Shown: one piece after another, positions 9,076-31,764 of the stretch | How positions within the stretch are numbered: the first letter of the stretch is position 1 | How the letters are laid out: the number at the start of each line of letters is the position of its first letter | Assembly (NCBI GenBank): GCA_965205365.1 | Contig: CBDBGT010000011.1 | Coordinates: 36,292-100,291, forward strand | Direction of reading: 5' to 3' | DNA length: 64,000 bases | Origin: Bdellovibrionales bacterium | GTDB lineage: Bacteria; Bdellovibrionota; Bdellovibrionia; Bdellovibrionales; UBA1609 | Notes under the pieces: model-generated | The model's input: the letters and a program-made list of their open reading frames with translations, nothing else | Told to the model about the DNA's origin: nothing | Database searches by the model: none | Program-made: the position numbers and the translations under genes

Positions 9076-11223
9076 TTTTTTTAAATAATTAAAGAGCTTA
9101 AGACCTTAATTTTTTTTTACTACTTTTGTATCAAAATAAGAAAAAAACAGTTCTTTGAAAACACTAAGTTAAAAATAAAGCTAAAAACCCACACTTATTA
9201 CGCCTTAATATTAAATTAAGAAAATCACTTAATTTACTCAAGTTTTTAAGCCCTTTATCCGATACATAGAGTATAAAATATAAGAATTTATATAGGATAT
9301 AACATGAAAGCTTTAACTTTATTTACAGTTTTATTATGGACGTTTTCTTCCTTGGCTGTGCCAAGTTCTTTTGTCTTTCAAGGTCAAATTATAAAGCCCA
9401 ATGGAGAAGCCCTAGAAGACAATAATGTTAACTTTATTCTTAAAATCCTATCTCCCCTAAACCACTGCCTCCTCTATGAAGAAACCTTCACCCTTAATAT
9501 GACAGACTCAAAGGGAGTGTTTAACCTAAGTGTTGGGTCTGGCACAACCACAGGAAATGGTGGCTTAACAAGTTTATCTAAAGCCCTAGACAATTCCTTA
9601 AACAACATCACAGGGCTTAACTGTGACTCTGGTTCCTCATACAGTCCAAGCCTCACTGACACAAGAAAACTTAGAATGACTTTTGATGACGGCAGTGGTC
9701 CCCTTACTCTAACAAATGACCACACAATTGAAAGTGTGCCCTATGCTCAGTATGCTCATAAACTTGGCGGAAAAACACTTCATGACTTTATTCAAGTCAA
9801 CAGTGGTGTGACACAAAGTAATTTAGAAACTGTGTTTGATAACGGTGTAAACCAAAGAGAGTTTATGGCTTTAATTGAGGGCCGTTCTAACCAATACTCT
9901 CCATTAAGCACTAGTGGAGCTAGTTCTTTACCGAGCTTTTCAAATCCTCCCCTTAACTCTAAGGCAGGAGATGTTTGGTACAACTCTACAACCAATGAAA
10001 TCATGTACCACAATGGATCAGTAAACACCGTTGTTGGCCAAGGGAGTGGAACTGTGACCAGTATCACCACAGGAAGTGGTCTAAGTGGTGGAATCATTAC
10101 AAACAGCGGTACAATTTCAATTGCCACAGGGGGTGTATTAAACAGTCACCTTCAAGGTGGTATCCATGGAAGTAAAATCACAGGAGGAGTTTTACCAGCC
10201 TCAGTGGTTCCAACAGGAACTGATGATACAAAGCTTTCTCTTCAAGGAGGAAGTTTATTAGGTGATCTTAACCTTAATGGAAATGAGGTTTTAAACACAG
10301 GTCATATTATGCAAAACCCGAGGAGTACAATGACCCTAGGTTCTTATGGGAATTTAGAAGAGGCTAGTCTTTTAGGTTCTTTGAGTGCGGGGAATGCTGG
10401 AGCCACTTGGTACAATAGTGATTCTAGTGTGCTTAAGTACTGGGATGGTAGTGGTGTAGAAGTTTTAACCACAGTGAGTGTAGGTGTATCAAGTGTTTTA
10501 GTGAGTCCCCCGTTAACTTCTTCAGGTGGTAATGATCCAAGACTAGGCATAAGCCTTGGTAGGGGTTTATACAACAAGAGTGGAAGTGTGGAGATAGATT
10601 TAGACTCTCTTAGTGGTTTAGACTTTAATGGAAGTAAGTTAAAGGTAAAGGCAGGAAGTGGTATAAGACTAACAGGAAGTGGTATAGAGGCAGATACGGG
10701 AACGAGTTTAGGTCAGTTAATGAGAGTAGACAGTCTTCCTGTGTGCACAAGTGGGGAAAAGATTCAAAGAAACTCTGGAGCCACAGTGACTTATTCTTGT
10801 GTGGCTGATGTAGATGAAGACACAAGTCTTTTAGGAAAATCAGCAGGAGGAGACCTTAGTGGAACTTATCCAAACCCCATTTTAACATCAACAGGGGTGA
10901 GTGAGGGAATCTACTTAAAAGTTAGAGTGGACACTAAGGGAAGGGTAAGAGAGGGTTTAAGTTTAGTAGAAAGTGATATACCAAACTTAAGTGGAAATAA
11001 AATCACTTCAGGAACCATTAATACAAATAGATTAAACACAGGAACAGGGAGTAATGACCTTGTTAAGCTTGATGGTTTATCAAGGTTACCAAGTGTAGAT
11101 GGGAGTCAGCTTATAAACTTACCAAGTAGTGCTGACAATATGGGAAATGGTGAGGCGCAAGAGAATATACATCTTAATGGAAATTATTTAAGTGGAGACG
11201 GTGATAATGAGGGAATTAGTGTA
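9076..11223 (+). repeat. About 2.1-kb direct repeat (upstream region plus fibre shaft); second copy at about 27786-29934
   Basis: About 230 bp of upstream DNA and about 640 codons are nearly identical between the two fibre genes. Confidence 0.95.
9238..9265 (+). promoter_or_regulatory. Putative sigma28 (FliA) promoter of fibre gene 1
   Basis: tcaagttt-ttaagcccttta-tccgatac about 40 bp before the ATG; resembles TAAAGTTT-N11-GCCGATAA. Confidence 0.55.
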
Positions 11224-12084
11224 AACAGTGATGGCGATGTTTCTGCAACAGGGTCTATTAGTGCATCTAGTGTTGTGCTTTTAAATGGAATAAAAATTGG
11301 AACAGAGACAACAACTTGTAGCAGTGTAAATGAGGGAACTTTAAGGTATAGTACTTTAGAAAAGAAAATGGAGTTTTGTAATGGAACAGTGTGGAGTGTT
11401 TTAGGTGTTGAGCCTGATCCATGTCTTGTGTCTTCTTCACCCCCCCCCCCCCCCCCCTCAGGAACCGTGTGTAAAGGTGGAGCAATTTATCTTGGAAGTC
11501 TTAGCCCAGGTGCTACTAGTGGAAGTGGAACAGATCACTATATGACCACCCCTGGGGGTTGTGAGGACATTCCATCAGGAAGTGTTTCAGGAGGTTCGGG
11601 GACAAATTCCTATGCATTAAATGATTTTACAGTGATTTGTTCTGGTACGGATAGCTTACATAAAGATTGGAATGATAGTTTAACTAATTACTACGATATT
11701 CCAGGGCTAGTAAACTACATATCAACTCCTGGAACTGGTCATGGTGAAAGTAACATAGATTTAAATTACGGTTCAGCTAATACAGATGCAATTGCTGCCA
11801 TCACTTTACCGCTTCAAGGGGGTTATCATGCCGCAGCAAGGTATTGTCATAAGCTTGTTTATGGTGGTTATGATGATTGGCATTTACCTAATCGTTATGA
11901 GCTTAATTTAATGTACACAAACCGCTCTGTTATTCGAGGTTTAGATCAAAATGGTTCATATTATTGGTCGTCTACGGAGGACGATCATTACTATGCGTGG
12001 GTCCAGAGATTCTCAGATGGATTCCAGCATAATTATGACGGCAAGGCCAACGATTTTTTGATTCGGTGTGTGCGGCGGTTTTGA
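9304..12084 (+). CDS. MAT-like (mosaic adhesive trimer) fibre adhesin 1 with C-terminal DUF1566/Lcl C-type-lectin domain
   Basis: Signal peptide; FQGQIIKPNG..LE...CLLYEE...GVFNLSVGSG and SVPYA N-terminal motifs; Gly-rich tail-fibre shaft; GYDDWHLPNRYEL...YWSSTE...AW...RCVRRF tip. Confidence 0.85.
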   Translation: MKALTLFTVLLWTFSSLAVPSSFVFQGQIIKPNGEALEDNNVNFILKILSPLNHCLLYEETFTLNMTDSKGVFNLSVGSGTTTGNGGLTSLSKALDNSLNNITGLNCDSGSSYSPSLTDTRKLRMTFDDGSGPLTLTNDHTIESVPYAQYAHKLGGKTLHDFIQVNSGVTQSNLETVFDNGVNQREFMALIEGRSNQYSPLSTSGASSLPSFSNPPLNSKAGDVWYNSTTNEIMYHNGSVNTVVGQGSGTVTSITTGSGLSGGIITNSGTISIATGGVLNSHLQGGIHGSKITGGVLPASVVPTGTDDTKLSLQGGSLLGDLNLNGNEVLNTGHIMQNPRSTMTLGSYGNLEEASLLGSLSAGNAGATWYNSDSSVLKYWDGSGVEVLTTVSVGVSSVLVSPPLTSSGGNDPRLGISLGRGLYNKSGSVEIDLDSLSGLDFNGSKLKVKAGSGIRLTGSGIEADTGTSLGQLMRVDSLPVCTSGEKIQRNSGATVTYSCVADVDEDTSLLGKSAGGDLSGTYPNPILTSTGVSEGIYLKVRVDTKGRVREGLSLVESDIPNLSGNKITSGTINTNRLNTGTGSNDLVKLDGLSRLPSVDGSQLINLPSSADNMGNGEAQENIHLNGNYLSGDGDNEGISVNSDGDVSATGSISASSVVLLNGIKIGTETTTCSSVNEGTLRYSTLEKKMEFCNGTVWSVLGVEPDPCLVSSSPPPPPPSGTVCKGGAIYLGSLSPGATSGSGTDHYMTTPGGCEDIPSGSVSGGSGTNSYALNDFTVICSGTDSLHKDWNDSLTNYYDIPGLVNYISTPGTGHGESNIDLNYGSANTDAIAAITLPLQGGYHAAARYCHKLVYGGYDDWHLPNRYELNLMYTNRSVIRGLDQNGSYYWSSTEDDHYYAWVQRFSDGFQHNYDGKANDFLIRCVRRF
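11440..11457 (+). repeat. C18 homopolymer, in frame (Pro6)
   Basis: 18 consecutive C between shaft and lectin tip; the paralogue has only C5 here. Confidence 0.9.
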
Positions 12085-12245: not shown

Positions 12246-13728
12246 GGTTCACCGTTATCTAGAAGGGTGTGATCCATGCCAACAAGCCTAAAGTCCTGAA
12301 AAAGATAAACAAGCTCCCTCCACACAATTAAAATTTGGTTACTAAATAAACTAAATTGTCGGAGGATTAAATGGAGCTATTTGAAAAGTTAATCGTAAAA
12401 TCACTAGGTCTTCAAGGTGTAAAATTAGAAAACTGGGAGGCTTGTGATAAAGAGTTAAAACTAGTCCTTTACGCAAAACAAGATCGTGAAAATGTAGGCT
12501 GTAATCAATGTGGCTGCCAAATATCTCATGTCCATGAGTGGAAGCTTCGAAAAATTAAAGCTTCTCCAATAGGCTCATATGAAGAGGTGTGGATTTACTT
12601 AAAACAGCTTCGAGGGCACTGCTTAATGTGTGATGATAAAGTCAGATCAGCTGGTGTTGATTTTACTCACCCTAATTTTGAAAACTTAACTTACTCACTT
12701 GTAGAAAAAGCAGGACGTCTTTGTGAAGAGATGACTTGTGAGTCAGTTGCTAGAATTTTAAGAATGAACCCCAAGACTGTGTGGAATTTGGATCAGTACC
12801 GGATGAAGCAAATAAAACCTCTTTTAAGCTATGCTGAAAGAAAGTTAGATTTAGAGCAGATGTCATCTGATGAGGTGCACTTTAGAACTATTTTTGGAAA
12901 GAAGTCTTGTGACAAGAATACGATTAAGTTCATCACAAATTTAGTCTGTACGAAGATGAGAAAGGTGCTCTCAAATGCAATGGGCAGAAAGGGTTCAAGC
13001 TTACTTAATTGTTTAAAGGTATTAACAAAAGAGCAGCTAGATAAGATCAAGTTTTTTGCAGTTGATATGCATGATGCTTTTATTGAGGCTGTGATAGGTA
13101 AATGTGAGAATGCTAAGGTCTGTGTTGATAGGTTCCATGTTGCAGAAGGGCTAAATAATTTTTTTGATGATGTGAGAAAATTTGAGTTTAAAAAAGCTAA
13201 AGAAAATGAAGATAAGTTTTTAATGGATGTGCTAGCACCTCATAAAAGATATATTTTAGTGGAGCGTGAGAAGAATTTATCTAAAGGAGATTTTACTAAA
13301 TTAGAGAGGCTTTTAGATGTGAATAAGAACATTTTTAAAGCTTCAGTTTTAGTTGAGCACTTCCATAAAGTTTTAGATCAAAAGAATGTAAAAGACTTTA
13401 GAAAAGCTCTGGTTCTTTGGTACCGATATGCAAGAGAGTCAAAATTAAAGCCCTTTTTGAAATTTGCAAAAACCTTAAGAAAGTACAGAGGTTACATTGA
13501 AGGATATATTATGTCTGGGCTCACAACAGCAGTAAGTGAAGGCTTAAACAACAAGATTAAAGTGCTTAGAAGGATGGGCTATGGTTACACAAACCCAGAG
13601 TCATTTATGCACAAAATACTGCAGCGATGTGGACTTTTAAACTCAAATTACATCAATACTTCAAGTTGGTACTGGCCACCTCAAATGAGATTGGCACAAA
13701 CTACACCCTTCTAGATAACGGAGAGGCC
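12246..13728 (+). mobile_element. Intact ISL3-family element
   Basis: Terminal IRs share the core ccgttatctagaagggtgt; 8-bp target duplication tatggcat at 12238-12245 and 13729-13736. Confidence 0.95.
12371..13714 (+). CDS. ISL3 transposase
   Basis: CNQC/CLMC zinc finger, DEVH, VDMH, DRFHV, SEGLNNKIK..R.GYG motifs. Confidence 0.95.
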   Translation: MELFEKLIVKSLGLQGVKLENWEACDKELKLVLYAKQDRENVGCNQCGCQISHVHEWKLRKIKASPIGSYEEVWIYLKQLRGHCLMCDDKVRSAGVDFTHPNFENLTYSLVEKAGRLCEEMTCESVARILRMNPKTVWNLDQYRMKQIKPLLSYAERKLDLEQMSSDEVHFRTIFGKKSCDKNTIKFITNLVCTKMRKVLSNAMGRKGSSLLNCLKVLTKEQLDKIKFFAVDMHDAFIEAVIGKCENAKVCVDRFHVAEGLNNFFDDVRKFEFKKAKENEDKFLMDVLAPHKRYILVEREKNLSKGDFTKLERLLDVNKNIFKASVLVEHFHKVLDQKNVKDFRKALVLWYRYARESKLKPFLKFAKTLRKYRGYIEGYIMSGLTTAVSEGLNNKIKVLRRMGYGYTNPESFMHKILQRCGLLNSNYINTSSWYWPPQMRLAQTTPF

Positions 13729-14785: not shown

Positions 14786-16015
14786 CTAATCAATACTCAT
14801 ATGAACTATTAAGGGCCTTCCTTTAGGAGGTGGGGAATCTTTTTTTTCTGATGAGGTGTTTGAATCTTCTTGACTAGAATTCTTTGAATGAGAAGAAGCA
14901 CTCTTGTCTAATTGTTCAATGAAAATTTCTTTTAAAGCATTTGCATCTAAAACGTAGGCTGTAATAGTTGTTGTTATGTTTCCTGTAATGCCAGATGATG
15001 TGACTAAAAAAGTGGAAAGAGGAGAGTAGAGAATGGGTATGCCATTTGAATGAATTTCTTCAATGTTAGAGAAGTTAAGCTCACTTAAAAGGTTGTCAAA
15101 ACTATTTTCATCAAGGCTTCCACCTTCAGCTTGTATCTCATCTCTGCGCATTAAAAAGTCTTTGGTTGCTTCTTCAGTAAACTGAGGGTCTATACTCATT
15201 AAGACATTTTTTTCAGCAGTGTTTACATTGATCCCAAAAGTGCCATGAATAGTAATAAGATTTTTTAAATGTTTGAATATAAGGTCATCCATTTTATCTA
15301 CAAGCATCAATTCAGATAAAGTCATAAAGGAGGAGTTTCTTGGGTAACCTTTTTGCTCTTCAAAAGTGTAAAAACTTGATTCACTGCCTCCGTTTCGAGA
15401 CTCTTCATCTTTGTCCACCCAATCAGCTACGTTATTTAAAACTTCTTTTATAGAATCTATTGAGTGTTTTTTTGATAAAGCATGGTCTGTGTCTAGAAGC
15501 TGGTTAAATGTACGTAGTAGGGTTTCTAGTGTTTTATTAGAAATAGTTTTTACAGGAGAGCCTAAGCTGTTTAAATCTATTTTTTCACCAGCATCTTGGA
15601 TTTGATGGAAAAAAGTAATATTACTAATTAAAGATTTTTTTAAAATGGTTTTGGTTTCATCTTTTGAAATTAGTCCTGCATTTTCTGGGATTTCTATGGG
15701 CCATGGTAGAGGGAACTGCCAAATCATTGCAAGCTGCTGGCTAAAGTTTATATTTTGATTTCCTACGGCTTTACTAATTGAGGCTTTTGCGTGTTGAAAA
15801 GCTTTGATTCTTAGTAATGCCATTTCTAAACCTGCTTTTGCAGAATATTTAGATTTTAATTTTTTCAACTCTCTACTTGCAAGAGTAGACTCAGTAAGTG
15901 TTTCTGTAGAAAGTTGAGTAACAATGAAGCCAGCAATGGTGAAAAAGAAAAGAGCCATCATCAACGCAGCACCGGTTTCATTTTTTTTATTTACAATCTC
16001 TTCTTTATCACACAT
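14786..16015 (-). CDS. gspK: Type II secretion minor pseudopilin GspK
   Basis: GAALMMAL prepilin-like N-terminus, KIDLN, DWVD.D, INVNTA motifs; last gene of the HIJK operon. Confidence 0.88.
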   Translation of the reverse strand: MCDKEEIVNKKNETGAALMMALFFFTIAGFIVTQLSTETLTESTLASRELKKLKSKYSAKAGLEMALLRIKAFQHAKASISKAVGNQNINFSQQLAMIWQFPLPWPIEIPENAGLISKDETKTILKKSLISNITFFHQIQDAGEKIDLNSLGSPVKTISNKTLETLLRTFNQLLDTDHALSKKHSIDSIKEVLNNVADWVDKDEESRNGGSESSFYTFEEQKGYPRNSSFMTLSELMLVDKMDDLIFKHLKNLITIHGTFGINVNTAEKNVLMSIDPQFTEEATKDFLMRRDEIQAEGGSLDENSFDNLLSELNFSNIEEIHSNGIPILYSPLSTFLVTSSGITGNITTTITAYVLDANALKEIFIEQLDKSASSHSKNSSQEDSNTSSEKKDSPPPKGRPLIVHMSID

Positions 16016-16030
16016 TAATAAATGAGTCTC

Positions 16031-16969
16031 CTAGAGTTGATTTACGTTGCTTGTAGGTTTTAAGGCTTGAGAGTCTTTGATTTTTTTAAAAGGGTTGTTG
16101 TTTGCAAAATCAGTTTGAAAAACACCAGTTAAGTATTCTTTTTTAAATTTTTTTTTGTTTTTTTTATCAGGGATTTTTATTTCTAAAAATAAGGAAACTG
16201 CGGCTGGAAAGTTATTTCCAGTACGCTGATCACTTTTATTTCGGCTATCCCAAGACTCAACCCAATCAGCAGTTTCTTTTGAAATATCTTCATCCTGAAA
16301 GCTTAAGTATTTAAACTCCGCTTTTTCAATATTTTCAATTAAAACAGACTCTTTTCCACCTTTGGTTACATCCTCATCAAGGTTATATGAAACAGATCTC
16401 CACAGACACTTTGATTCTTGATCTTTATATTTTCGACTTTTACAAGTTCTAATAAAGTATCCAATTTCAACTAAATCAGAAATTTTATCAGCAGACCTAA
16501 ACCGCACCCCTGAAGAAGATGTGAAATAAGCTTTCTCATTATCGGCAATGAAATGAGTATAGATTGTTTCTTTAATAGGTGCAATTGGACTTGGGCGAGG
16601 TTGAATATTCATACTTTTTTTTAACTCTTCGGTTAATGTTGCTACAGTTACAAAAGGTCGGGGGTTTTCTTTCTTATTGTATTCTTCAATTTTTTTCTTA
16701 ACATTAGCATCATATCTTTTTACTCGCTCTTTTTGAGCCTCAGTATATAAGAATAAATTTAGATCACGAAAGTTAATTGCTTTTCCAATATCTTTTTTAA
16801 TTATATTCATCGAGGCTCTTAGTTGATTGATATTGTCTATACCAGCTGTGATCCGCTTAGTTTGTACAGTAGATTTTCTAAGCATTTGTGTAGTTGTGAT
16901 GCTTAGAATAGACATAAGAGATATGGCTATGAGTAGTTCTAAAAGGGTGAAGGCTTTTTGGTTTGTCAT
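16031..16969 (-). CDS. gspJ: Type II secretion pseudopilin GspJ
   Basis: AFTLLELLIA cleavage motif, C-terminal W...P.AV, operon position. Confidence 0.8.
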   Translation of the reverse strand: MTNQKAFTLLELLIAISLMSILSITTTQMLRKSTVQTKRITAGIDNINQLRASMNIIKKDIGKAINFRDLNLFLYTEAQKERVKRYDANVKKKIEEYNKKENPRPFVTVATLTEELKKSMNIQPRPSPIAPIKETIYTHFIADNEKAYFTSSSGVRFRSADKISDLVEIGYFIRTCKSRKYKDQESKCLWRSVSYNLDEDVTKGGKESVLIENIEKAEFKYLSFQDEDISKETADWVESWDSRNKSDQRTGNNFPAAVSLFLEIKIPDKKNKKKFKKEYLTGVFQTDFANNNPFKKIKDSQALKPTSNVNQL

Positions 16970-17496
16970 AGGTTACTAACCCCTGAGGGAAGGTTTCCTA
17001 AACCTAGGTCTAAAGGTGTGTCGTAATCTACTAAAATTGTTGCAATGGAGAAGCGGTATTTTTCAGCTTTCGAGGAGGATTTATAAATTATTGTAACTTT
17101 TACTTCTTTAATAGAATCTTCAAGGTGCTTTTTCATTTGAGTAATGACCTTATGTTTCATCTCATCAAGAATACCTTCTTTTTGTGTGAGAAGGCGAGCT
17201 ATATCAGGCATTTTAAACTCAGCACTTTCCCATTCCCATGTGTATGCAGAAAGGCTTTTGTCTTTAAAAGTTCCTGTTTGAATATCCTTGGGAAGTTTTT
17301 TTACATCATTTTTATACATAATTTGAATTTCTGTTATTTTTTTTTCCAAAAGATAAACAGCTTGAGTTTTTGCTTTTGATTTTTTAACTCTTCTTAAATT
17401 TCCTTTCCAACTAGATGTGAGTAGGATCATTATGGAAGCTAAGATAGATAAAGCTATAATGACTTCTAAAAGAGTAAACCCTTTTTTAGTTTTCAT
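16966..17496 (-). CDS. gspI: Type II secretion pseudopilin GspI
   Basis: GFTLLEVIIAL motif; operon position. Confidence 0.78.
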   Translation of the reverse strand: MKTKKGFTLLEVIIALSILASIMILLTSSWKGNLRRVKKSKAKTQAVYLLEKKITEIQIMYKNDVKKLPKDIQTGTFKDKSLSAYTWEWESAEFKMPDIARLLTQKEGILDEMKHKVITQMKKHLEDSIKEVKVTIIYKSSSKAEKYRFSIATILVDYDTPLDLGLGNLPSGVSNL

Positions 17497-18125
17497 CGAT
17501 CTTGAAGCTCCTCTAAACTTTTATGGTCTTTAACTGTATAAAGTTCACCACTAATGCTATCTGAAATCATAGTGATTTTATAAGAGCCGTCTAGGTTTGT
17601 AAATTGTATAGATGTTTCCTCAACAAGGCCATGGGGGAAGTAGTGAAAAACTCCAAGCCCTTCACGAATAGGGTAGTCAATCCCTGAAATTTCAATTTGA
17701 TTGATTTTTAAATTTTTCGGCATTTTTAATTTTTGAAAACTAAATTTTCTAGCTTTTTTAAAGCCCTCATTGTTTTTTATTTTATTATTACCTTTGTTTT
17801 TTTCCTTGTTTTGAAAGTTTTTAAGTAGTTCTTTAAACTTTTCCCTAGATTCTTTCTCTGTTCCTAGAAGAATGGGCCTAGGTGTTTTTTCCACCCAGAT
17901 TTTAGGAGCCTCTTTATCGTTTAGTAGAAAAACTATTCTATATGTTGAGTTCTCTAATAAAGCTTGGTTTCTTATTTTTTTTGACATTAAAGAAAAGCGC
18001 CTAAAAAAACGTTGAAACTCTTTTTGAGGATTTTTAGGTGGCCTTACTGCAAATACAGCTAGGGTCCCTAAAATACCTAGCACTATAAGAATCTCAATAA
18101 GAGAAAATCCATTTTTTTTTGTCAT
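17493..18125 (-). CDS. gspH: Type II secretion pseudopilin GspH
   Basis: GFSLIEILIV motif; C-terminal FPHG...SG. Confidence 0.75.
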   Translation of the reverse strand: MTKKNGFSLIEILIVLGILGTLAVFAVRPPKNPQKEFQRFFRRFSLMSKKIRNQALLENSTYRIVFLLNDKEAPKIWVEKTPRPILLGTEKESREKFKELLKNFQNKEKNKGNNKIKNNEGFKKARKFSFQKLKMPKNLKINQIEISGIDYPIREGLGVFHYFPHGLVEETSIQFTNLDGSYKITMISDSISGELYTVKDHKSLEELQDR

Positions 18126-18195
18126 AATTTATTGTAAAGTGTAATTGATTGAGGTGGAAGGTAAATTTTTATATACCCTCATTCATTAAAAGTTT

Positions 18196-19020: not shown

Positions 19021-19098
19021 AAGAGTTATTTTAACATGTTTTTTACAACTTTAAAATATGTGTTTATGAGTTTTAGTTTATAAGTTAGTCTATTTTAT

Positions 19099-21863: not shown

Positions 21864-21887
21864 GGATTTTGAAGAAAAGGGGATATT

Positions 21888-24122
21888 ATGAATAAAATAA
21901 AAGTGATATTTACAGTATTTTTTGTAATTATAAGTGTTCCTTTAAGTGGACTCTATGCTCAAACTAAAGAAACATATAAAGTAAAAGGGGCTAAAGGGTA
22001 TTCAACAGATGAAATTGCAGGACCTAAGTCAAAAGCAGGTGTTAAATTCAGTGATGCTTATCCTGAAGAGATAAATGAAAAAAATTATCCAGATATGATT
22101 GATACTTTTGATTACCCAAGTATTGAGATTAAGGATCTTATAAATGTTATTGCTGAATTAACAGGTAAGAGGTTTATCACTTCAGAAAAAATTAGTGGCA
22201 AAGTAACAATCAATTCAAAAGAACCCATTTCTGTTGCTGAAGCTTATAAAGTCTTCTTATCGGCTTTACAAATGAATGACTTGACAGTTGTTCCTTCAGG
22301 AAAATTTTTAAAGATCATTAAAACAAGAGATGCAATTAAACTCTCCATTGAAACTTATACAGGAAAGTATTTTCCTGATTCTGATCAAATGATTATTAAA
22401 ACTGTTAAGTTAAAGTATATTCCTGCAGCTCAATTGGTTAAATCTTTAAGATCATTATATTCTAAAGATGGTGATATTAAAGAGTATGAACCTACAAACT
22501 CTCTTATTATATCTGATTGGGGTTCAAATGTAGAAAAAATTGTTGGTATCATTAGAGAATTAGATGTACCAGGGTTTGAAGAAAAAATGGAAGTGATTCC
22601 TATAAAATATGCTTTGGCTAAAGATATTGCTGAATTGATTAACAATATTATTAATAAAGGTCAAAAAAGATCAAGTTCAATTCCTAGGTTTAGAAGGTCT
22701 AGGAAGGGAGACATTTCAGGAAAAAGTTCAGTTAATTTGTCATATGTTACTGACGATACAAGAACCAATTCAATTATTGCCTTGGGCAACTCTGGAGGGA
22801 TTAAGAAGGCTAGAGAGCTTGTGAGCATTCTTGACTCTAAGCGTGACGGGGAAGAAGAAGGTGGTGTTCATGTTTATTATGTTAGGCATAATGATGCTGA
22901 AGAAATGGCAAAAACATTGGGTGGTATTGCTAATGATTCTAAAAAAGCTCAGACAGGTGGAAAGAGTGGCAGAAATTCTTCAGTGAATTTGCCGAACACA
23001 GCAAAGCCTAAGACACCAGCACAAATTTTTGGAAGTGAAGTAGCGGTTAAGGCTGATAAAAATATAAATGCTCTTTTGATAACAGCAAGTGCGTCTGATT
23101 ATCAAAAAGTAAAAAGAATTCTATCTAAAATAGATATTCCAAGGGATCAGGTTTTTGTTGAGACTATTATTATGGAGATCACATCTGATAATCAAAGGGA
23201 TGTGGGGATAGACATTGCTAAAGTTGATACAGCAGGTGCAACTAGTGTAACTAATCCTGCAACAAGCTTTGCTGTTCAAGGTATGTTTGGGAATGAAAAT
23301 GGTGGTTTGAAAGATTTCTTAACAAATCCCATAGCAGCTTTAAGTGGTGGTATATTGTCTTTTGGTACAGGGGAGGAGAAGCACTTAAGTATAGGTGGTG
23401 TAACAACTACGGTAAATTCTGTAATGGGTTTAGTAAAATTAATTCAAAGCTATAAAGTTGGAAATATTTTGTCTACTCCTACCATTATGGCAATGGACAA
23501 TGAGGAAGCAGAATTAGAAGTTGGAAAGGAAGTTGTTGTGGGGCAACAACAGGTTTCAAATGCTGCTGGAGCAACGGTTTCCACTAAAAGAGCCGATGTG
23601 AACACAAGTTTAAAGATTACTCCATCTATTAGTCCAGAGTCTAATGCTGTTAGGCTTAAAATAGATCAAAAAGTTAAAGATGTTGTTCAAGCCGGAGACC
23701 CTAATACTGATATCAACACAAAATCTTTAATTACAAACATTACTGTTCCAAATGGTGATACTGCAGTTTTAGGTGGTTTAGTGAGTGAGAAGGTTTCAAG
23801 TACAGTAAGTAAGGTTCCTTTATTAGGAGATATTCCAATTCTAGGGTGGCTGTTTCGGTCTAAGAAGAAAGATGTTAGGAAATCAAATTTAATGCTTTTT
23901 ATAACACCTAAAATCATTAGAAACCCTTTACAGAATCAAAAGTTATTAAAGGTAGAAATTGATAAGCGGTTACGCTTTATTAAAAAGAATATGAATGGTG
24001 TAGATCCTTTTGGTAATAAGGTTGATGAAATCTCTAAAATAAATCGTTCTAATAATAGTTCTAGTTGGGATGAGGAAACTCCTGAGGAGCTAAAAGAATA
24101 TCCAGTGATTGAGACAGAATAA
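21888..24122 (+). CDS. gspD: Type II secretion secretin GspD
   Basis: N-domain repeats, QVFVETIIME, KVPLLGDIPILGWLF, LFITPKII. Confidence 0.95.
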   Translation: MNKIKVIFTVFFVIISVPLSGLYAQTKETYKVKGAKGYSTDEIAGPKSKAGVKFSDAYPEEINEKNYPDMIDTFDYPSIEIKDLINVIAELTGKRFITSEKISGKVTINSKEPISVAEAYKVFLSALQMNDLTVVPSGKFLKIIKTRDAIKLSIETYTGKYFPDSDQMIIKTVKLKYIPAAQLVKSLRSLYSKDGDIKEYEPTNSLIISDWGSNVEKIVGIIRELDVPGFEEKMEVIPIKYALAKDIAELINNIINKGQKRSSSIPRFRRSRKGDISGKSSVNLSYVTDDTRTNSIIALGNSGGIKKARELVSILDSKRDGEEEGGVHVYYVRHNDAEEMAKTLGGIANDSKKAQTGGKSGRNSSVNLPNTAKPKTPAQIFGSEVAVKADKNINALLITASASDYQKVKRILSKIDIPRDQVFVETIIMEITSDNQRDVGIDIAKVDTAGATSVTNPATSFAVQGMFGNENGGLKDFLTNPIAALSGGILSFGTGEEKHLSIGGVTTTVNSVMGLVKLIQSYKVGNILSTPTIMAMDNEEAELEVGKEVVVGQQQVSNAAGATVSTKRADVNTSLKITPSISPESNAVRLKIDQKVKDVVQAGDPNTDINTKSLITNITVPNGDTAVLGGLVSEKVSSTVSKVPLLGDIPILGWLFRSKKKDVRKSNLMLFITPKIIRNPLQNQKLLKVEIDKRLRFIKKNMNGVDPFGNKVDEISKINRSNNSSSWDEETPEELKEYPVIETE

Positions 24123-24124
24123 AT

Positions 24125-25819
24125 ATGACAACACCTTTAAAAGCTTCTTTAGATTCAATTTTACTTAAAGGCACCTCCTTTTCAAAGGAAGAGTTAGGCT
24201 CCTTATTTTCAACGTATTTGTCATCTGGTGAAACAGTGGAACAGGTTTTAAGAGAGAAATCTTTTAAAACTTCTAGTGAAGCGGTAAAAAATTTGTCTCA
24301 CCTTATAGGTGTTGATTTCATGGAGGATGTTCCTTTTGGTGAAATTTCTGGAGACTTAGTAAGAAATATACCAATCAACTATGCTAAAACAAATGAAATC
24401 ATACCTTATAAAGAAGAAAAAGAAGAGCTTTTTGTATTCTCTTCAAATCCTTTAAATTTTAATGTTTTAGATGACTTAAGGGTTCTTTTTAATAAAAAAA
24501 TAACACCAATTATGTCAACAAGCTTGGTTATTCAAGAGGCTATTAATAAGGTTTATGAAAAGAGTACGTCAGGTTTAGATGGTTTTGATGAAGTTAGTGG
24601 TGAAGAATATGATTTAGAAGACCCTGTTATAGATTTATTAGAAGCTGGTGAAGATGATGCTCCAGTAATTAAACTTGTAAACTCTTTATTATTTAGAGCT
24701 GTAAAAGAAAAAGCTTCAGATGTTCATTTAGAGCCTTATGAAAGAGATATGGTGGTAAGATTTAGAATCGATGGAGTTTTATTTGATATTTTTAAACCAC
24801 CTAAGAAGTTACAAAATGCAATTACTTCTAGAATTAAGGTTATGGCAAATTTAAATATTGCTGAAAAAAGGCTTCCACAAGATGGAAGGATTCCTTTAAA
24901 ACTTGCAGGTAAGGATATTGATGTACGTTTGTCCACTGTTCCAACAGCGTTTGGTGAGCGAGTAGTTATGCGTCTTCAAGATAGATCTAATATTATTTTA
25001 GATCTTTATCAGTTGGGTTTTTCAGCTAAATCTTTAGTTCAAATCAATCATATTTTAGAAAAAACCTACGGTATTTTATTGGTAACAGGTCCTACAGGTA
25101 GTGGTAAATCAACTACACTTTATTCTTGTATATCTAAAATAAACACCATTGATAGAAATATTGTAACTGTTGAAAATCCTGTGGAGCAAAGGATACATGG
25201 AATTGGACAGATTCAAACTAATGAAAGAATTGGTCTTACTTTTGGGACTGCGTTAAGAGCTATTTTAAGACAAGACCCTAATGTCATTATGATAGGAGAG
25301 ATTAGGGATTTAGAAACAGCTGAGATTGCTATTAATGCGTCGTTAACTGGTCACTTAGTCTTATCTACTATTCATACCAATGATTCATCAGGAGTTTTTC
25401 CAAGGTTGATTGATATGGGGTGTGAGCCTTTTTTAATTGCAACATCTTTACTTGGTGTAATTGCTCAAAGACTTGTAAGGGTTTTGTGTGATCATTGTAA
25501 AGCTCCCTATACACCTTCAGATATTGAAATAAAAGCGTTAGGTTTAACGGTAGAACAGATAAACAGTGCTAGTATTCATAAGCCTGTTGGCTGTAGTGAA
25601 TGTAACCATAAGGGTTATATTGGACGAACTTTGATTATGGAGCTTTTAGTTTTAGATGATGAGGTGCGATCTTTAATTATGCAAAGAGTAGACAGTGGAA
25701 CAATTAAAAAAATTGCTGAAAAAAATGGAATGAAGACTTTTAGAGACCATGGAGTTTCTAAGGTTTTAAATGGAATTACATCTATTGAAGAAGTGATTAC
25801 AAACACACAAGTGGATTAG
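24125..25819 (+). CDS. gspE: Type II secretion ATPase GspE
   Basis: ASDVHLEP, GPTGSGKSTT, LRQDP, TGHLVLSTIH, CxxC pairs. Confidence 0.95.
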   Translation: MTTPLKASLDSILLKGTSFSKEELGSLFSTYLSSGETVEQVLREKSFKTSSEAVKNLSHLIGVDFMEDVPFGEISGDLVRNIPINYAKTNEIIPYKEEKEELFVFSSNPLNFNVLDDLRVLFNKKITPIMSTSLVIQEAINKVYEKSTSGLDGFDEVSGEEYDLEDPVIDLLEAGEDDAPVIKLVNSLLFRAVKEKASDVHLEPYERDMVVRFRIDGVLFDIFKPPKKLQNAITSRIKVMANLNIAEKRLPQDGRIPLKLAGKDIDVRLSTVPTAFGERVVMRLQDRSNIILDLYQLGFSAKSLVQINHILEKTYGILLVTGPTGSGKSTTLYSCISKINTIDRNIVTVENPVEQRIHGIGQIQTNERIGLTFGTALRAILRQDPNVIMIGEIRDLETAEIAINASLTGHLVLSTIHTNDSSGVFPRLIDMGCEPFLIATSLLGVIAQRLVRVLCDHCKAPYTPSDIEIKALGLTVEQINSASIHKPVGCSECNHKGYIGRTLIMELLVLDDEVRSLIMQRVDSGTIKKIAEKNGMKTFRDHGVSKVLNGITSIEEVITNTQVD

Positions 25820-25822
25820 TAA

Positions 25823-27037
25823 ATGCCTTTATATGAATATAAAGCCTTAAATAGGCAAGGGAAAAAAGTTAAGGGAGTTGTTGATTCTGATAACTCTAAG
25901 GCAGCTCGTGTGGAGCTTAAGAAAAAGGGTCTTTATGTAACAGATGTATATAATAAATCTCAAAGGCAAGGGAAAGCAAAAAGTGGTATAAGCTCTAGCG
26001 CAAGAGTAAGAATTGATGATTTATCTCTTGCAACTAGGCAATTAGCAACACTTCTTAAAGCTAATATTCCCTTAGTAGAAGCTTTGGCAATATCTGCAAG
26101 CCAGTCAGACAATGTAGTTTTAAAGGAAGCTTTCTCAGACATTAGGAATGAAGTTAATGAAGGTGGAACTCTTAATAAAGCATTATTAAAATACCCTGGA
26201 ATATTTAATAAAGTTTATATTTCAATGTGTGAGGCTGGTGAAACATCAGGAACCCTTGATGTTATTCTTGTTAGGCTTGCTGAGTTTACAGAGAGCCAAA
26301 GTGAACTTCAAGCCAAGTTAAAATCAGCAATGACTTACCCTATGATTATGCTTTCTTTTATGACTTTATTAGTGGGCGGATTGTTTATTTTTATGATTCC
26401 TCAGATGAAACAAATTTTTGAGGATAATGAAGACTTAGAACTTCCAGTATTGTCGCAAATTGTTTTTGCAACAAGTGATTTTTTATTAGAATACTGGGTT
26501 CTTATTATAGCAAGTTTTTTGTTCTCTGTATTTTTATTTCAAATTTGGAAAAAATCTCCTTCAGGGAGTAATGTTTGGGACGCAATTAAGTTAAAATTTC
26601 CAGTTTTTGGAAACTTAATCAGAATGGTTGCTGTTGCAAGGTTTACAAGAACGTTGGCAACATTATTAGATGGTGGTGTTCCTATGCTTCATGCTATGTC
26701 TATTGTTAGAAATGTTGTAGATAATGAAGTGTTGGCAATAGCTTTAGATGAAGCTAGGGATAATATTAGTGAAGGAGAGTCCATTGCAGGTCCCCTTAAA
26801 AAATCTGGAGAATTTCCACCAATTGTAATTCATATGATAAGTACTGGTGAAAAAACAGGCGAACTTGAAAATATGCTTACACAAGTGAGTGATTCTTACG
26901 ATTTTCAGGTAAGAAATAAGGTAGATAGTTTTACATCTATTTTAGAACCAGTTATGTTAGTCTTAATGGGGCTTATTGTGGCAGTGATTGTGTTTGCAGT
27001 AGTCTTGCCAATGCTTGCAATGCAGGGGACTGTTTAA
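25823..27037 (+). CDS. gspF: Type II secretion inner-membrane protein GspF
   Basis: RQLATLL, GETSGTLD, AMTYP, GEKTGELE, ILEP motifs. Confidence 0.95.
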   Translation: MPLYEYKALNRQGKKVKGVVDSDNSKAARVELKKKGLYVTDVYNKSQRQGKAKSGISSSARVRIDDLSLATRQLATLLKANIPLVEALAISASQSDNVVLKEAFSDIRNEVNEGGTLNKALLKYPGIFNKVYISMCEAGETSGTLDVILVRLAEFTESQSELQAKLKSAMTYPMIMLSFMTLLVGGLFIFMIPQMKQIFEDNEDLELPVLSQIVFATSDFLLEYWVLIIASFLFSVFLFQIWKKSPSGSNVWDAIKLKFPVFGNLIRMVAVARFTRTLATLLDGGVPMLHAMSIVRNVVDNEVLAIALDEARDNISEGESIAGPLKKSGEFPPIVIHMISTGEKTGELENMLTQVSDSYDFQVRNKVDSFTSILEPVMLVLMGLIVAVIVFAVVLPMLAMQGTV

Positions 27038-27088
27038 AGATTTAAATTTAAAAAAGGTTTAGCATTTCTAAAGTAGAAGGAGAAAAAA

Positions 27089-27508
27089 ATGATAAGAGTA
27101 AATAACCAAAAAGGTATGAGTTTAGTTGAGATATTAGTTGTTTTGGCTATTATTGGTGTTATTGGAACAACAATTGCCAGTAATGTCATAGGCAGGAATA
27201 AAAAGGCTAAATATGATACTGCAAAAATTCAAATATCTAAAATTACTAATGCAATTAATGAATTTTATAGTGATTGTGATCAAATTCCAGATTCTTTAGG
27301 TCAGCTTATTGACCAGCCAAGTGAGGATGTTTGTGAATCTTGGGGATTAGGTGGAGCATACGCTAAAAAGCGAGATCTTTTAGATCCATGGAAGCAAGAA
27401 TTTATATATGAAGTAAAAGGTAGTGATTTTGTTATTATAAGTTATGGGGCTGATAAGTCTCAAGGTGGAGAAGGCTTAGGGAAAGATATTTCAAGTGAGG
27501 ACTTATAA
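27089..27508 (+). CDS. gspG: Type II secretion major pseudopilin GspG
   Basis: GMSLVEILVV, DPW...Y, SYGAD..GGEG...DI motifs. Confidence 0.92.
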   Translation: MIRVNNQKGMSLVEILVVLAIIGVIGTTIASNVIGRNKKAKYDTAKIQISKITNAINEFYSDCDQIPDSLGQLIDQPSEDVCESWGLGGAYAKKRDLLDPWKQEFIYEVKGSDFVIISYGADKSQGGEGLGKDISSEDL

Positions 27509-27976: not shown

Positions 27977-28014
27977 ATAGAGTATAAAATATAAGAATTT
28001 ATATAGGATATAAC

Positions 28015-31000
28015 ATGAAAGCTTTAACTTTATTTACAGTTTTATTATGGACGTTTTCTTCCTTGGCTGTGCCAAGGTCTTTTGTCTTTCAAGGTCAAAT
28101 TATAAAACCTAATGGGGAAGCCTTAGAAGATAATAATGTTAACTTTATTCTTAAAATCCTATCTCCCCTAAACCACTGCCTCCTCTATGAAGAAACCTTC
28201 ACCCTTAATATGACAGACTCAAAGGGAGTGTTTAACCTAAGTGTTGGGTCTGGCACAACCACAGGAAATGGTGGCTTAACAAGTTTATCTAAAGCCCTAG
28301 ACAATTCCTTAAACAACATCACAGGGCTTAACTGTGACTCTGGTTCTTCATACAGTCCAAACCTCACTGACACAAGAAAACTTAGAATGACTTTTGATGA
28401 CGGTGGTGGTCCCCTTACTCTAACAAATGACCACACAATTCAAAGTGTGCCCTACGCTCAGTATGCTCATAAACTTGGCGGAAAAACACTTCATGACTTT
28501 ATTCAAGTCAACAGTGGTGTGACACAAAGTAATTTAGAAACTGTGTTTGATAACGGTGTAAACCAAAGAGAGCTTATGGCTTTAATTGAGGGCCATTCTA
28601 ATCAATACTCTCCATTAAGCACTAGTGGAGCTAGTTCTTTACCTAGCTTTTCAAATCCTCCCCTTAACTCTAAGGCAGGAGATGTTTGGTACAACTCTAC
28701 AACCAATGAAATCATGTACCACAATGGATCAGTAAACACCGTTGTTGGCCAAGGGAGTGGAACTGTGACCAGTATCACCACAGGAAGTGGTCTAAGTGGT
28801 GGAATCATTACAAATAGCGGTACAATTTCAATTGCACCAGGGGGTGTATTAAACAGTCACCTTCAAGGTGGTATCCATGGAAGTAAAATCACAGGAGGAG
28901 TTTTACCAGCCTCAGTGGTTCCAACAGGAACTGATGACACAAAGCTTTCTCTTCAAGGGGGAAGTTTATTAGGTGATCTTAACCTTAATGGAAATGAGGT
29001 TTTAAACACAGGTCATATTATGCAAAACCCGAGGAGTACAATGACCCTAGGTTCTTATGGGAATTTAGAAGAGGCTAGTCTTTTAGGTTCTTTGAGTGCG
29101 GGGAATGCTGGAGCCACTTGGTACAATAGTGATTCTAGGGTGCTTAAATACTGGGACGGTAGTGGTGTAGAAGTGTTAACCACAGTGAGTGTAGGTGTAT
29201 CAAGTGTTTTAGTGAGTCCCCCGTTAACTTCTTCAGGTGGTAATGATCCAAGAATAGGCATAAGCCTTGGTAGGGGTTTATACAACAAGAGTGGAAGTGT
29301 GGAGATAGATTTAGACTCTCTTAGTGGTTTAGACTTTAATGGAAATAGGTTAAGAGTAAAAGCAGGAAGTGGTTTAAGACTAACAGGAAGTGGTATAGAG
29401 GCAGATACGGGAACGAGTTTAGGTCAGTTAATGAGAGTAGACAGTCTTCCTGTGTGCACAAGTGGGGAAAAGATTCAAAGAAACTCTGGAGCCACAGTGA
29501 CTTATTCTTGTGTGGCTGATGTAGATGAAGACACAAGTCTTTTAGGAAAATCAGCAGGAGGAGATCTTAGTGGAACTTATCCAAACCCCATTTTAACATC
29601 AACAGGGGTGAGTGAGGGAATTTATTCAAAAGTTAGAGTGGACACTAAGGGAAGGGTAAGAGAGGGTTTAAGTTTAGTAGAAAGTGATATACCAAATTTA
29701 AGTGGAAGTAAAATCACTTCAGGAACCATTAATACAAATAGATTAAACACAGGAACAGGGAGTAATGACCTTGTTAAGCTTGATGGTTTATCAAGGTTAC
29801 CAAGTGTAGATGGAAGTCAGCTTATAAATTTACCAAGTAGTGCTGACAATATGGGAAATGGTGAGGCTCAAGAGAATATACATCTTAATGAGCATTATTT
29901 AAGTGGAGACGGTGATAATGAGGGAATTAGTGTAGATGCATTAGGAAGGGTTGGAGTGGGTAAAAGGAATCCTCAAGCATTATTAGATGTTGCTGGAAAA
30001 GTAAGGGCAACAGAGATTTGTGATGAAAGAGGTGGAAACTGTAAGGATGTGTCAACAGGTTGGGATAGAGGGAGTGTAGGAGCAAACCAAGTGACCAACG
30101 TTCCTTTTGGAAATGTTTTAGGCACAGATGTTCAGACTGCAATTAATGAGCTTGATTCTAAAAAAGTTCCAATAACTAGAGAAATTGCAACAGTTTTAAA
30201 TAGTGGATTAAGTGGAGGGGGAGACTTATCCACCAACAAGAATTTAAGTGTGGATATTCATGGAACTGTAGAAGAAAGTATAGTGAGTGGTTTAGACAGT
30301 GTTTTAATTCACGATGTATCCCAAAATAGTTTAAAAAAAATAACACAGTCAAATTTTTTAAATGATTATTTTAAAGGATCTTTAGGAACGAGTTTAGGTG
30401 ATGCAATGGATGCTGGAGGTGTGCCTAGTTGTGGAGTGGATGAGAAGCTTAGAATGAGTCAAGGTCCTGTTTATTTATGGTCATGTGTGGTGGATGAAGA
30501 CACAAGTCTTTTAGGAAAATCAGCAGGAGGGGATCTTAGTGGAACTTATCCAAACCCCATTTTAACACCAACAGGGGTGAGTGAAGGAATCTACTTAAAA
30601 GTTAGAGTGGACACTAAGGGAAGAGTGACAGAGGGTTTAAGTTTATCAGAAAGTGATATACCAAATTTAAGTGGAAGTAAAATCACTTCAGGAACCATTA
30701 ATACAAATAGATTAAACACAGGAACAGGGAGTAATGACCTTGTTAAGCTTGATGGTTTATCAAGGTTACCCAGTGTAGATGGAAGTCAGCTTACAAACTT
30801 ACCAAGTAGTGCTGACAATATGGGAAATGGTGAGGCTCAAGAGAATATACATCTTAATGGAAATTATTTAAGTGGAGACGGTGATAATGAGGGAATTAGT
30901 GTAAACAGTGATGGTGATGTTTTTGCTTCTAGAAATATTGCTGCTGTGGGGTCTATTAGTGGATCTAGTGTTGTACTTTTAAATGGAATAAAAATAGGAA

Positions 31001-31764
31001 CAGAGGAAACAACTTGCAATACTTTAAACGAGGGAACTTTAAGGTATAGTGAAAAGAAAATGGAGTTTTGTAACGGAAGTGTGTGGAGTGTTTTAGGTGT
31101 TGATGATCCATGTCTTAGTTCTTCCCCCTTGCCAGGTGCTGTGTGTAAAGGTGGAGCAATTTATCTTGGAAGTCTTAGCCCAGGTGCTACCAGTGGTAGT
31201 GGAACAGATCACTACATGACCACCCCTGGGGGTTGTGGAGATATTCCATCAGGAAGTGTTTCAGGGGGTTCGGGGACAAATTCTTATGCATTAAATGATT
31301 TTACAGTGACTTGTTCTGGTACTGATAGTTTATTTAAAGATTGGAATAATAATACAAGTAATTGGTATAATATTCCAGGGCTAGCAAATTACACATCAAC
31401 TTTGGGAATTGGTCATGGTGAAAATAACATAGATTTAAATTACGGTTCAGCGAATACAGATGTAATTGTTGCCATTACTTTAGAGTCTCAAGGGGGCTAT
31501 CATGCCGCAGCAAGGTATTGTCATAAGCTTGTTTATGGTGGTTATGATGATTGGCATTTACCTAACCGCTATGAGCTTAATTTAATGTACACAAATCGTT
31601 CTGCTCTTCCAGGTTTGGTTCAAGGTTCAAATGCTTGGTATTGGTCGTCTACGGAGTACAATTTTACAATGCGTGGATCCAGCGGTTTTCTGATGGCTAT
31701 CAGAATGGCGGCAGTAAGAGCGATTCTCGGCGTGTTCGTTGTGTACGGAGGTTTTGAGGCCTGA
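28015..31764 (+). CDS. MAT-like fibre adhesin 2 with DUF1566-type tip; 1-nt frameshift in the last about 30 codons (homologous stop at 31755-31757)
   Basis: Paralogue of 9304..12084 with a 323-aa insertion. The homologous NAWIQRFSDG...RCVRRF* lies in another frame after the T4 run at 31662-31665. Confidence 0.85.
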   Translation: MKALTLFTVLLWTFSSLAVPRSFVFQGQIIKPNGEALEDNNVNFILKILSPLNHCLLYEETFTLNMTDSKGVFNLSVGSGTTTGNGGLTSLSKALDNSLNNITGLNCDSGSSYSPNLTDTRKLRMTFDDGGGPLTLTNDHTIQSVPYAQYAHKLGGKTLHDFIQVNSGVTQSNLETVFDNGVNQRELMALIEGHSNQYSPLSTSGASSLPSFSNPPLNSKAGDVWYNSTTNEIMYHNGSVNTVVGQGSGTVTSITTGSGLSGGIITNSGTISIAPGGVLNSHLQGGIHGSKITGGVLPASVVPTGTDDTKLSLQGGSLLGDLNLNGNEVLNTGHIMQNPRSTMTLGSYGNLEEASLLGSLSAGNAGATWYNSDSRVLKYWDGSGVEVLTTVSVGVSSVLVSPPLTSSGGNDPRIGISLGRGLYNKSGSVEIDLDSLSGLDFNGNRLRVKAGSGLRLTGSGIEADTGTSLGQLMRVDSLPVCTSGEKIQRNSGATVTYSCVADVDEDTSLLGKSAGGDLSGTYPNPILTSTGVSEGIYSKVRVDTKGRVREGLSLVESDIPNLSGSKITSGTINTNRLNTGTGSNDLVKLDGLSRLPSVDGSQLINLPSSADNMGNGEAQENIHLNEHYLSGDGDNEGISVDALGRVGVGKRNPQALLDVAGKVRATEICDERGGNCKDVSTGWDRGSVGANQVTNVPFGNVLGTDVQTAINELDSKKVPITREIATVLNSGLSGGGDLSTNKNLSVDIHGTVEESIVSGLDSVLIHDVSQNSLKKITQSNFLNDYFKGSLGTSLGDAMDAGGVPSCGVDEKLRMSQGPVYLWSCVVDEDTSLLGKSAGGDLSGTYPNPILTPTGVSEGIYLKVRVDTKGRVTEGLSLSESDIPNLSGSKITSGTINTNRLNTGTGSNDLVKLDGLSRLPSVDGSQLTNLPSSADNMGNGEAQENIHLNGNYLSGDGDNEGISVNSDGDVFASRNIAAVGSISGSSVVLLNGIKIGTEETTCNTLNEGTLRYSEKKMEFCNGSVWSVLGVDDPCLSSSPLPGAVCKGGAIYLGSLSPGATSGSGTDHYMTTPGGCGDIPSGSVSGGSGTNSYALNDFTVTCSGTDSLFKDWNNNTSNWYNIPGLANYTSTLGIGHGENNIDLNYGSANTDVIVAITLESQGGYHAAARYCHKLVYGGYDDWHLPNRYELNLMYTNRSALPGLVQGSNAWYWSSTEYNFTMRGSSGFLMAIRMAAVRAILGVFVVYGGFEA
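29524..30903 (+). repeat. Internal 411-bp (137-aa) module duplicated at 29524-29934 and 30493-30903; single copy in fibre 1 (10813-11223)
   Basis: DEDTSLLGKSAGGDLSGTYPNP...GDNEGISV occurs twice. Confidence 0.95.

Follow-up and report, generated by a model that had tools for sequence, protein, structure and literature searches.

In the diversity-generating retroelement (DGR) of Bordetella phage BPP-1, the components run in the order mtd-avd-TR-brt, that is, target, Avd, template repeat (TR) and reverse transcriptase (RT), and the receptor-binding fibre protein ends in a variable region (VR) of ~40 codons that differs from the TR in an adenine-specific manner. The initiation of mutagenic homing (IMH) sequence and a hairpin or cruciform after the VR are described as necessary and sufficient for targeting (Guo 2011, PMC3240598). 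Fibres of the MAT (mosaic adhesive trimer) family, in turn, are characterized in Bdellovibrio bacteriovorus HD100 as trimers displayed on the surface of the predator that take part in prey recognition; the C-type-lectin tip of one of them, Bd2740, resembles the DGR protein Mtd, and no DGR is reported there, the name appearing in that paper solely within the title of a reference (PMC10769870). Here we examine a 64,000-nucleotide stretch of the genome of an uncultured Bdellovibrionales bacterium (hereafter the window), which carries two MAT-family fibre genes with DUF1566/Lcl_C tips, gene A (9304..12084, plus strand) and gene B (28015..31764, plus strand). We argue that a chromosomal DGR very probably diversifies the tips of such fibres in this organism, gene B being a remote target and gene A an older, former one. 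The source genome (G000) is a 2.42-Mb assembly of 13 contigs with an estimated completeness of 98.2%, in which the window corresponds to C11:36292-100291.

The element resembles that of BPP-1 in the order of target, Avd, TR and RT, in the adenine-specific differences between TR and VR, in the position of the VR within the last ~40 codons of a fibre protein, and in the inverted repeat 3' of the VR. The best solved relative of its RT is chain 8ub7_A ('Reverse transcriptase', 3.3e-29), which we take to be the BPP-1 RT itself; RTs of group II introns and retrons match at 4.3e-8 or more weakly. Unlike the phage element, it resides on a bacterial chromosome in three cassette copies with nine VRs, six of them away from the cassettes, and the tip is of the DUF1566/Lcl_C type, not the Mtd type. 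The DGR of Treponema denticola (TvpA plus remote targets) likewise employs one TR for several non-adjacent genes, but in another organism and with another domain class (TvpA is of the formylglycine-generating-enzyme type), whereas the targets here are fibres. With six non-adjacent targets, the source genome adds a case with many remote targets, to be set against the largest number given in a 2018 survey, seven, in Treponema (PMC5758913); in the same survey, targets more than 100 kb away are assigned to non-phage DGRs only, and gene B lies at 338 kb. That survey lists DUF1566-type VRs as an established class, 'CLec2' (category d, Wu et al. 2018), accounting for 14% of 372 DGRs, with LdtA of Legionella as its type (PMC5758913). 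As in the LdtA DGR of Legionella pneumophila, the VR here is located in a DUF1566-type C-terminal domain and the element is cellular, not phage-borne; unlike in LdtA, a surface lipoprotein according to the survey (PMC5758913), the domain here caps a MAT fibre of ~1250 aa and many genes are targeted. Apart from the structural remark on Mtd, a literature search returned no paper linking DGRs with Bdellovibrio or MAT fibres, although supplementary tables may list cases, and neither 'bdello' nor 'predat' occurs in the text of a global DGR survey, supplementary files aside (PMC8144416).

The initial annotation had suggested looking elsewhere in the genome for a TR near a DGR-type RT, and three Avd-TR-RT cassettes were indeed found. 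A search with the last 191 nt of gene A yielded about 28 full-length copies and three 57-nt matches ~720 nt downstream of full copies, and adjoining these short matches are three RT genes (PF00078, 65.7 bits each), in near-identical cassettes with the order MAT target, Avd, TR, RT. At C11:404828-408511, a fibre end (...WSSTE...RCVRRF, then the stop codon) is followed by a 135-aa bAvd open reading frame (ORF), a non-coding, AAC/AAT-rich copy of the fibre end, and a 377-aa RT. Over all 377 aa, two of the RT copies are identical; the third covers residues 11-377 with 99.7% identity. The RT carries the motifs IGNLTSQ at residue 207 and YVDD at residue 240; the [I/L/V]GxxxSQ motif marks the RTs of DGRs. 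No RT model of NCBIfam scored over its cut-off with this protein. The 135-aa ORF between target and TR matches Pfam bAvd with 60.9 bits (cut-off 40) and NCBIfam DivGenRetAVD with 58.9 bits, under the cut-off of 80. The TR is a single sequence present in three identical 220-nt copies, with a core of 113 nt that includes 36 adenines and 12 AAY codons (Y, pyrimidine), and an anchored pattern search of both strands detected no further TR-like sequence in the genome. The cassette at about 245-251 kb of contig C5 is wholly intact. The element is a bona fide DGR, mechanistically a known kind of system in a new setting, namely the fibre tips of a Bdellovibrio-like bacterium with numerous remote targets.

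RT hits at C5:709050 and C13:484052 were considered as further cassettes and rejected: they belong to truncated C-terminal fragments (C5:708852-709373 and C13:484052-484291) that extend from the YxDD motif onward and have neither Avd nor TR beside them, and one of which adjoins a transposase fragment. Two diverged DUF1566 ends (C5:742842-743400 and C5:562141-562700) continue into the first ~45-60 nt of an Avd gene and then into unrelated DNA; these stubs look like relics of older DGR cassettes.

When the 28 VR-like copies were aligned to the TR core, three groups became apparent. Nine copies, gene B among them, fit the TR, with 0-2 non-adenine and 8-15 adenine mismatches (group 1); seven are intermediate, with 3-9 non-adenine and 15-20 adenine mismatches (group 2); and 12, including gene A and one degenerate fragment, are diverged, with 12-23 mismatches of either kind (group 3). 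Cognate TR/VR pairs in this genome show 8 and 14 adenine mismatches and no others. Among the seven distinct VRs tallied (C5:535105+, with an extra codon, was left out), 81 of the 87 substitutions fall on TR adenines (A>G 46, A>T 21, A>C 14; the rest are T>G 5 and T>A 1). The columns that vary in group 1 comprise 25 of the 36 adenines compared to 4 of the 77 other positions (p=1.1e-12), and an enrichment at adenines is still seen with 28/36 versus 20/77 in group 2 and 28/36 versus 34/77 in group 3. Codons equivalent to AAY keep a pyrimidine in the third position in 69/72, 71/72 and 69/72 cases in groups 1, 2 and 3, respectively. The 3'-terminal VR codon is AGG, against AAG in the TR, in 7/7 tallied VRs and in the other two TR-matching copies; this difference, which contributes one of the adenine mismatches of gene B, may reflect an IMH/IMH* difference and not mutagenesis.

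These patterns suggest a mechanism in which the 113-nt TR RNA would be reverse-transcribed with random misincorporation opposite adenines, and the resulting cDNA would replace the homologous last ~113 nt, the VR, of genes with a matching 3' end, the targets being the DUF1566/Lcl_C (C-type-lectin-like) tips of MAT-family fibres encoded by nine genes. The same data bear on the possibility that no retroelement is involved in genes A and B, and that their ends diverged through ordinary diversifying selection and recombination within a large paralogue family. The many non-adenine differences between A and B, the failure of gene A to fit any TR, and the 3-23 non-adenine mismatches to the TR in 19 of the 28 copies are compatible with such an explanation. 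However, pyrimidine third positions at the frequencies given above are not predicted by selection alone, and for gene B the explanation is refuted by the placement of 13 of its 14 substitutions at TR adenines (binomial p=3.4e-6, for 36 A in the 113-nt TR) and by a framework that agrees with the TR in 76 of the 77 non-adenine positions. We therefore give it scarcely any credence. Variation outside template adenines, which the initial annotation had named as the pattern that would argue for ordinary diversification, is thus not characteristic of the TR-matching VRs, although it is conspicuous when A is compared directly to B.

The VR of gene B (31641..31752, plus strand; 112 nt) is homologous to the 113-nt TR at C11:405972-406084, from which it differs by 13 adenine mismatches, a single non-adenine substitution (T>G, CTT>CGT) and a 1-nt gap. 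The match of this end to the TR, with its adenine-specific differences, and the distance of 338 kb to the closest cassette (338,040 nt to the nearest TR on contig C11) identify gene B, by its sequence, as a remote DGR target. One further argument, that the TR 'overwrote' the framework of gene B, was dropped as having no force: 1 mismatch was seen in 77 positions where ~3.7 would be expected from the 4.8% divergence over the 600 nt upstream. The N-terminus of the protein matches Bdello_MAT_N with 159.7 bits (cut-off 60); the tip scores 31.5 bits against Lcl_C, under the cut-off of 34.9, in a match shortened by a frame break (see below), and 35.4 bits, over the cut-off, in a six-frame scan of the genome. 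Directly 3' of the VR, an imperfect inverted repeat spans the stop codon (31748..31780, plus strand) and is a candidate DGR hairpin or cruciform. Its sequence is conserved in most copies, and its predicted DNA fold has -8.8 kcal/mol (z=-2.4; 5/200 shuffles fold equally well). By analogy with BPP-1, this hairpin might guide homing. About 45 nt further on follows a perfect, terminator-like 18-bp inverted repeat (31797..31835, plus strand), which is common to gene B and the cassette targets; the fold of 31745-31845 reaches -26.4 kcal/mol (z=-7.7, 0/200 shuffles).

Gene A presents a different picture. It is an intact ORF of 926 aa with matches to Bdello_MAT_N (NF053851; 160.8 bits, residues 9-166, cut-off 60) and to Pfam Lcl_C (DUF1566; 49.6 bits, residues 841-924, cut-off 34.9), and a profile match to the solved chain 8q4e_A ('HbP1', 2.1e-13) was also obtained; a search for the identity of that chain returned nothing. 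By these sequence matches, the tip may have a C-type-lectin-type fold. Its VR-like end (11964..12079, plus strand; 116 nt), a putative orphan or fossil variable region, differs from the TR at 17 adenine and 17 non-adenine positions and in 3 gap columns (one extra codon). All 14 variable codons are NNY, compared to 527 of the 926 codons gene-wide (p=3.7e-4), and can be read as the old AAY footprint of past AAY-templated diversification. The framework is identical to the TR at 56 of 74 positions and to any other copy at no more than 64 of 74 (at most 86%). The 18-bp inverted repeat found after TR-matching copies is absent 3' of gene A, the first hairpin is present in a weak version, and the downstream sequence leaves that of the family at ~12104. 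The idea that an ISL3 element truncated this downstream repeat was rejected, since the insertion sequence (IS) begins at 12246 and divergence is already seen at ~12104. By these comparisons, gene A appears as an older, diverged paralogue and not as a current DGR target; because no TR in the genome matches it and its framework is at most 86% like other copies, it would at best once have been served by an older template that has since been lost, and its tip would now be changing by ordinary mutation.

An alternative is that gene A is still a live target of a second TR that went unassembled or lies on an unassembled element. Gene A does keep the WSSTE...RCVRRF framework, the NNY footprint and the weak first hairpin, the genome holds the Avd stubs at C5:742842 and C5:562141 and the two truncated RT fragments, and the assembly is 98.2%, not 100%, complete. 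Nevertheless, the anchored search of both strands found no second TR, the best framework match of gene A is 64/74 whereas copies served by one TR are nearly identical in framework, and gene A is without the 18-bp repeat of the TR-matching copies. We consider this alternative very unlikely, and retain the view that gene A is an ex-target.

The direct comparison of A and B, from which the initial annotation had started, is less informative than it appeared. The two paralogues are confirmed as ORFs of 926 and 1249 aa. Their reported near-identity over promoter and shaft holds at 97.4% for A 9073-11223 versus B 27783-29934, a stretch that begins 231 nt upstream of the start codon and covers the first 2.15 kb, but not for the last 1.3 kb, where identity is 86%. 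Gene B contains an internal repeat (29935-30489) not found in A, such that A 10810-11223 has two counterparts in B, 29521-29934 and the sequence from 30490 on; this repeat makes up most of the extra ~320 residues of gene B. The sharp divergence noted in the last ~40 codons is real (87/124 aligned columns identical, compared to 351/406 in the preceding 400 nt). The framework described as fixed, WSSTE/AW/Q/SDG/RCVRRF, is common to both genes, although in B it emerges only once the frame is shifted. Of the silent changes that involve A, aga/cgg, tca/tct and gga/ggc, which had been taken to support a DGR, fall where the TR has C, G or T, so that a DGR using that TR cannot have made them. The A-versus-B contrast is thus not in itself a DGR signature, which becomes visible only in the comparison of each end with the TR. 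Accordingly, the proposed remote-target diversification of the fibre tips stands for gene B and fails for gene A, which matches no TR in the genome.

The TR-matching targets belong to one fibre family. Bdello_MAT_N has 15 matches in the source genome and none in 14 control genomes, and 27 gene ends besides the three TRs match Lcl_C; the description of the fibre genes as MAT-like with DUF1566 tips is borne out by these profile matches. All nine TR-matching VRs, when matched by coordinates, form the 3' ends of MAT genes, three beside a cassette and six elsewhere, gene B being one of the six, and five of the nine fibres are intact single ORFs of 1251-1258 aa. The diverged ends belong to four further MAT fibres, gene A included, and to about 14 short DUF1566 ORFs. 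The latter, which lack the MAT domain (roughly 200-350 aa; e.g. C10:109171, C10:126615 and C5:284176), share the same DUF1566 end and keep the conserved 3' inverted repeats, with at least 3 non-adenine mismatches to the TR; they are possibly a second class of former targets. The fibres share the N-terminal MAT domain with those of B. bacteriovorus HD100 (Bd2740). Unlike in HD100, where tip diversity reportedly reflects different domains carried by some 21 genes, one tip type here would be hypermutated by a retroelement.

Comparison of closely similar paralogues points to recent homing. We compared pairs that are free of mismatches over the 1000 nt preceding the VR, the first mismatch lying 1020 to 4032 nt away. 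The C5a and C11 cassette fibres differ at 16 VR positions, all at TR adenines; C5a and C13:301595 at 13, 12 of them at adenines; the C11 cassette fibre and C13:301595 at 14, 13 at adenines; and C11:524819 and C11:508635 at 5, all at adenines. Since the flanks are clean and the VRs differ almost only at TR adenines, homing would have occurred after the duplication or homogenisation of these fibre genes, and may be going on now.

Related elements occur elsewhere in the order. A search of a genome-contig collection with the MAT N-terminus returned no relative, and a search of the same collection with the RT returned only RTs of other phyla that are 31-40% identical. RT relatives (E<=1e-40) were detected in 22 of 384 genomes of the order Bdellovibrionales, the source genome included, and eleven RT loci outside the source genome are 55-61% identical. 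We examined eight cassettes from seven other genomes, leaving out G333, G143 and G326, where contig ends lie near the RT. In five of the eight (G009, G338, G303, G243 and G091, from three GTDB families), a single ORF with a MAT_N-like start and a DUF1566 tip lies directly upstream of Avd-TR-RT; the MAT_N-like starts were recognized by tblastn with the first 170 aa of gene A (E 9e-10 to 8e-40), and the one of G009 scores 105 bits with the NCBIfam model. The target of a second G009 cassette is without MAT_N, and two other targets are cut by contig ends. Cognate TR/VR pairs of these cassettes differ at adenines and non-adenines, respectively, by 12/0, 9/0, 7/0, 8/0, 11/1, 16/1 and 17/2, and one pair, with a poor 3' alignment, by 11/10. 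Small indels in the AAY runs were found in five of the eight pairs (+1, +9, +2, -5 and -9 nt; loci L144, L147 and L148 are among the cassettes noted for them), three of them frame-breaking, like that of gene B; such indels might result from slippage of the RT on an A-rich template. Because the TRs of G009 and G091 each match only their own neighbouring VR, the expansion to nine targets appears particular to the source genome.

The frame break of gene B requires separate consideration. A T-run of gene B (31662..31665, plus strand) lacks one base relative to the TR and to every other copy, and the frame of the last ~33 codons is lost. The ORF as assembled reads ...WSSTEYNFTMRGSSGF...GGFEA and stops at 31764; the other, conserved frame (locus L020) would read ...AWIQRFSDGYQNGGSKSDSRRVRCVRRF and end ...NAWIQRFSDGYQNGGSKSDSRRVRCVRRF, with a stop at 31757. 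The initial annotation had overlooked the break. Contigs from two sequencing runs of one sample (X1 and X2; 80-81% of words) cover 30900-32300 in pieces of ~100-300 nt that mix all paralogues and the TR. At 31661-31665, all these contigs are one base longer than the window and fit the other copies (16.4+42.2+21 of 79.6 in X1; 16.8+79.1 of 95.9 in X2), and the T-run version of gene B itself was not seen among them, in pieces that mix paralogues. The frame-breaking indels in related cassettes make an assembly error at this site less likely. If the break is genuine, the tip of gene B would return to frame only when renewed homing replaces the VR.

Several observations weigh against an active DGR that diversifies prey-binding fibres. 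Gene B is broken within its VR, where a base is missing from a T-run, possibly through an assembly error; three other TR-matching fibres carry interruptions upstream, namely a 1.28-kb IS in the fibre gene of the C11 cassette, the RT of which is intact, and split ORFs in two; and the second C5 cassette has an RT that an insertion divides after about codon 10. Six of the 87 tallied substitutions are at T, not A. The X1 and X2 contigs are too fragmented to tell paralogues apart. The predatory lifestyle of the source organism is read from the labels of related metagenome-assembled genomes (MAGs), and the role in prey recognition is an extrapolation from B. bacteriovorus HD100 only (PMC10769870). 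Neither the RT nor the TR was found in four other genomes of the same genus, three of them fragmented and without a MAT_N match either; since repeats may be unassembled in these three, the absence of the RT there says little. Within the genus, MAT_N genes were seen only in contiguous assemblies (15 in G000 and 9 in G001, compared to 0 in the three fragmented ones). Fibre genes present as repeats probably drop out of short-read MAGs, so that DGR targets would escape surveys.

Some of these observations would fit a fossil element, the VRs of which record past diversification with no present homing, the end of gene B being that of a decaying pseudogene. The broken frame of gene B, the disruption of four of the nine TR-matching fibres, the split RT, the abundance of IS in the genome, and the lack of demonstrable read-level variation in run contigs where paralogues are inseparable all fit this account. 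On the other hand, two of the RTs and all three copies of both Avd and TR are intact and identical, and paralogues with 0 differences over 1000-4000 nt upstream differ 5-16 times per 113 nt, almost only at TR adenines. We regard this account as improbable, albeit the most serious of the competing ones, and prefer the interpretation that a working chromosomal DGR diversifies the MAT fibre tips.

The surroundings of the two fibre genes provide context. Genes A and B are separated by a complete-looking type II secretion gene cluster (14786..27508, strand not assigned) with Pfam matches to T2SSK, T2SSJ, T2SSC, secretin, T2SSE, T2SSF and T2SSG (components C, D, E, F, G, J and K); the nearest proteins to its GspE come from MAGs labelled Bdellovibrionales or Pseudobdellovibrionaceae. 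An ISL3-family IS of 1,482 bp (12246..13727, plus strand) starts 161 nt 3' of the gene A stop and encodes a transposase (ORF 12371..13714; DDE_Tnp_ISL3, 163.5 bits); the genome holds 16 further near-full-length copies of it at 99.9-100% identity and 6 partial ones. A 1.87-kb element 3' of the RT (C11:407615-409485) has more than 20 genomic copies, and the 1.28-kb element that splits one fibre gene (C11:401879-403157) has several, so that the source genome is very IS-rich. The 1283-aa ORF at 25-3876 of the window has no Pfam match at E<=1e-4.

At present, MAT fibres are considered the candidates for recognition of many kinds of prey by Bdellovibrio-like predators, and the findings reported here place one type of fibre tip under a hypermutation system familiar from the tail fibres of phages, one template serving a whole set of fibre genes. 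The 12 AAY codons would in principle allow about 1.3e14 forms per tip, and variation of the tip would, by analogy with BPP-1, alter which prey is bound. We tentatively propose, as a conjecture that falls somewhat short of even likelihood, that a predator DGR hypermutates up to nine MAT tips and thereby switches or broadens the prey range, as BPP-1 does with its tropism, and that indels in the AAY runs may act as on/off switches of fibres. If this is true, the trait would be common to a lineage of DGRs that spans at least three Bdellovibrionales families, and frame-breaking indels such as those in gene B and in 3/8 related cassettes would be reversible, the next homing event restoring the frame. 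The system thus offers a concrete, testable link between DGRs and bacterial predation.

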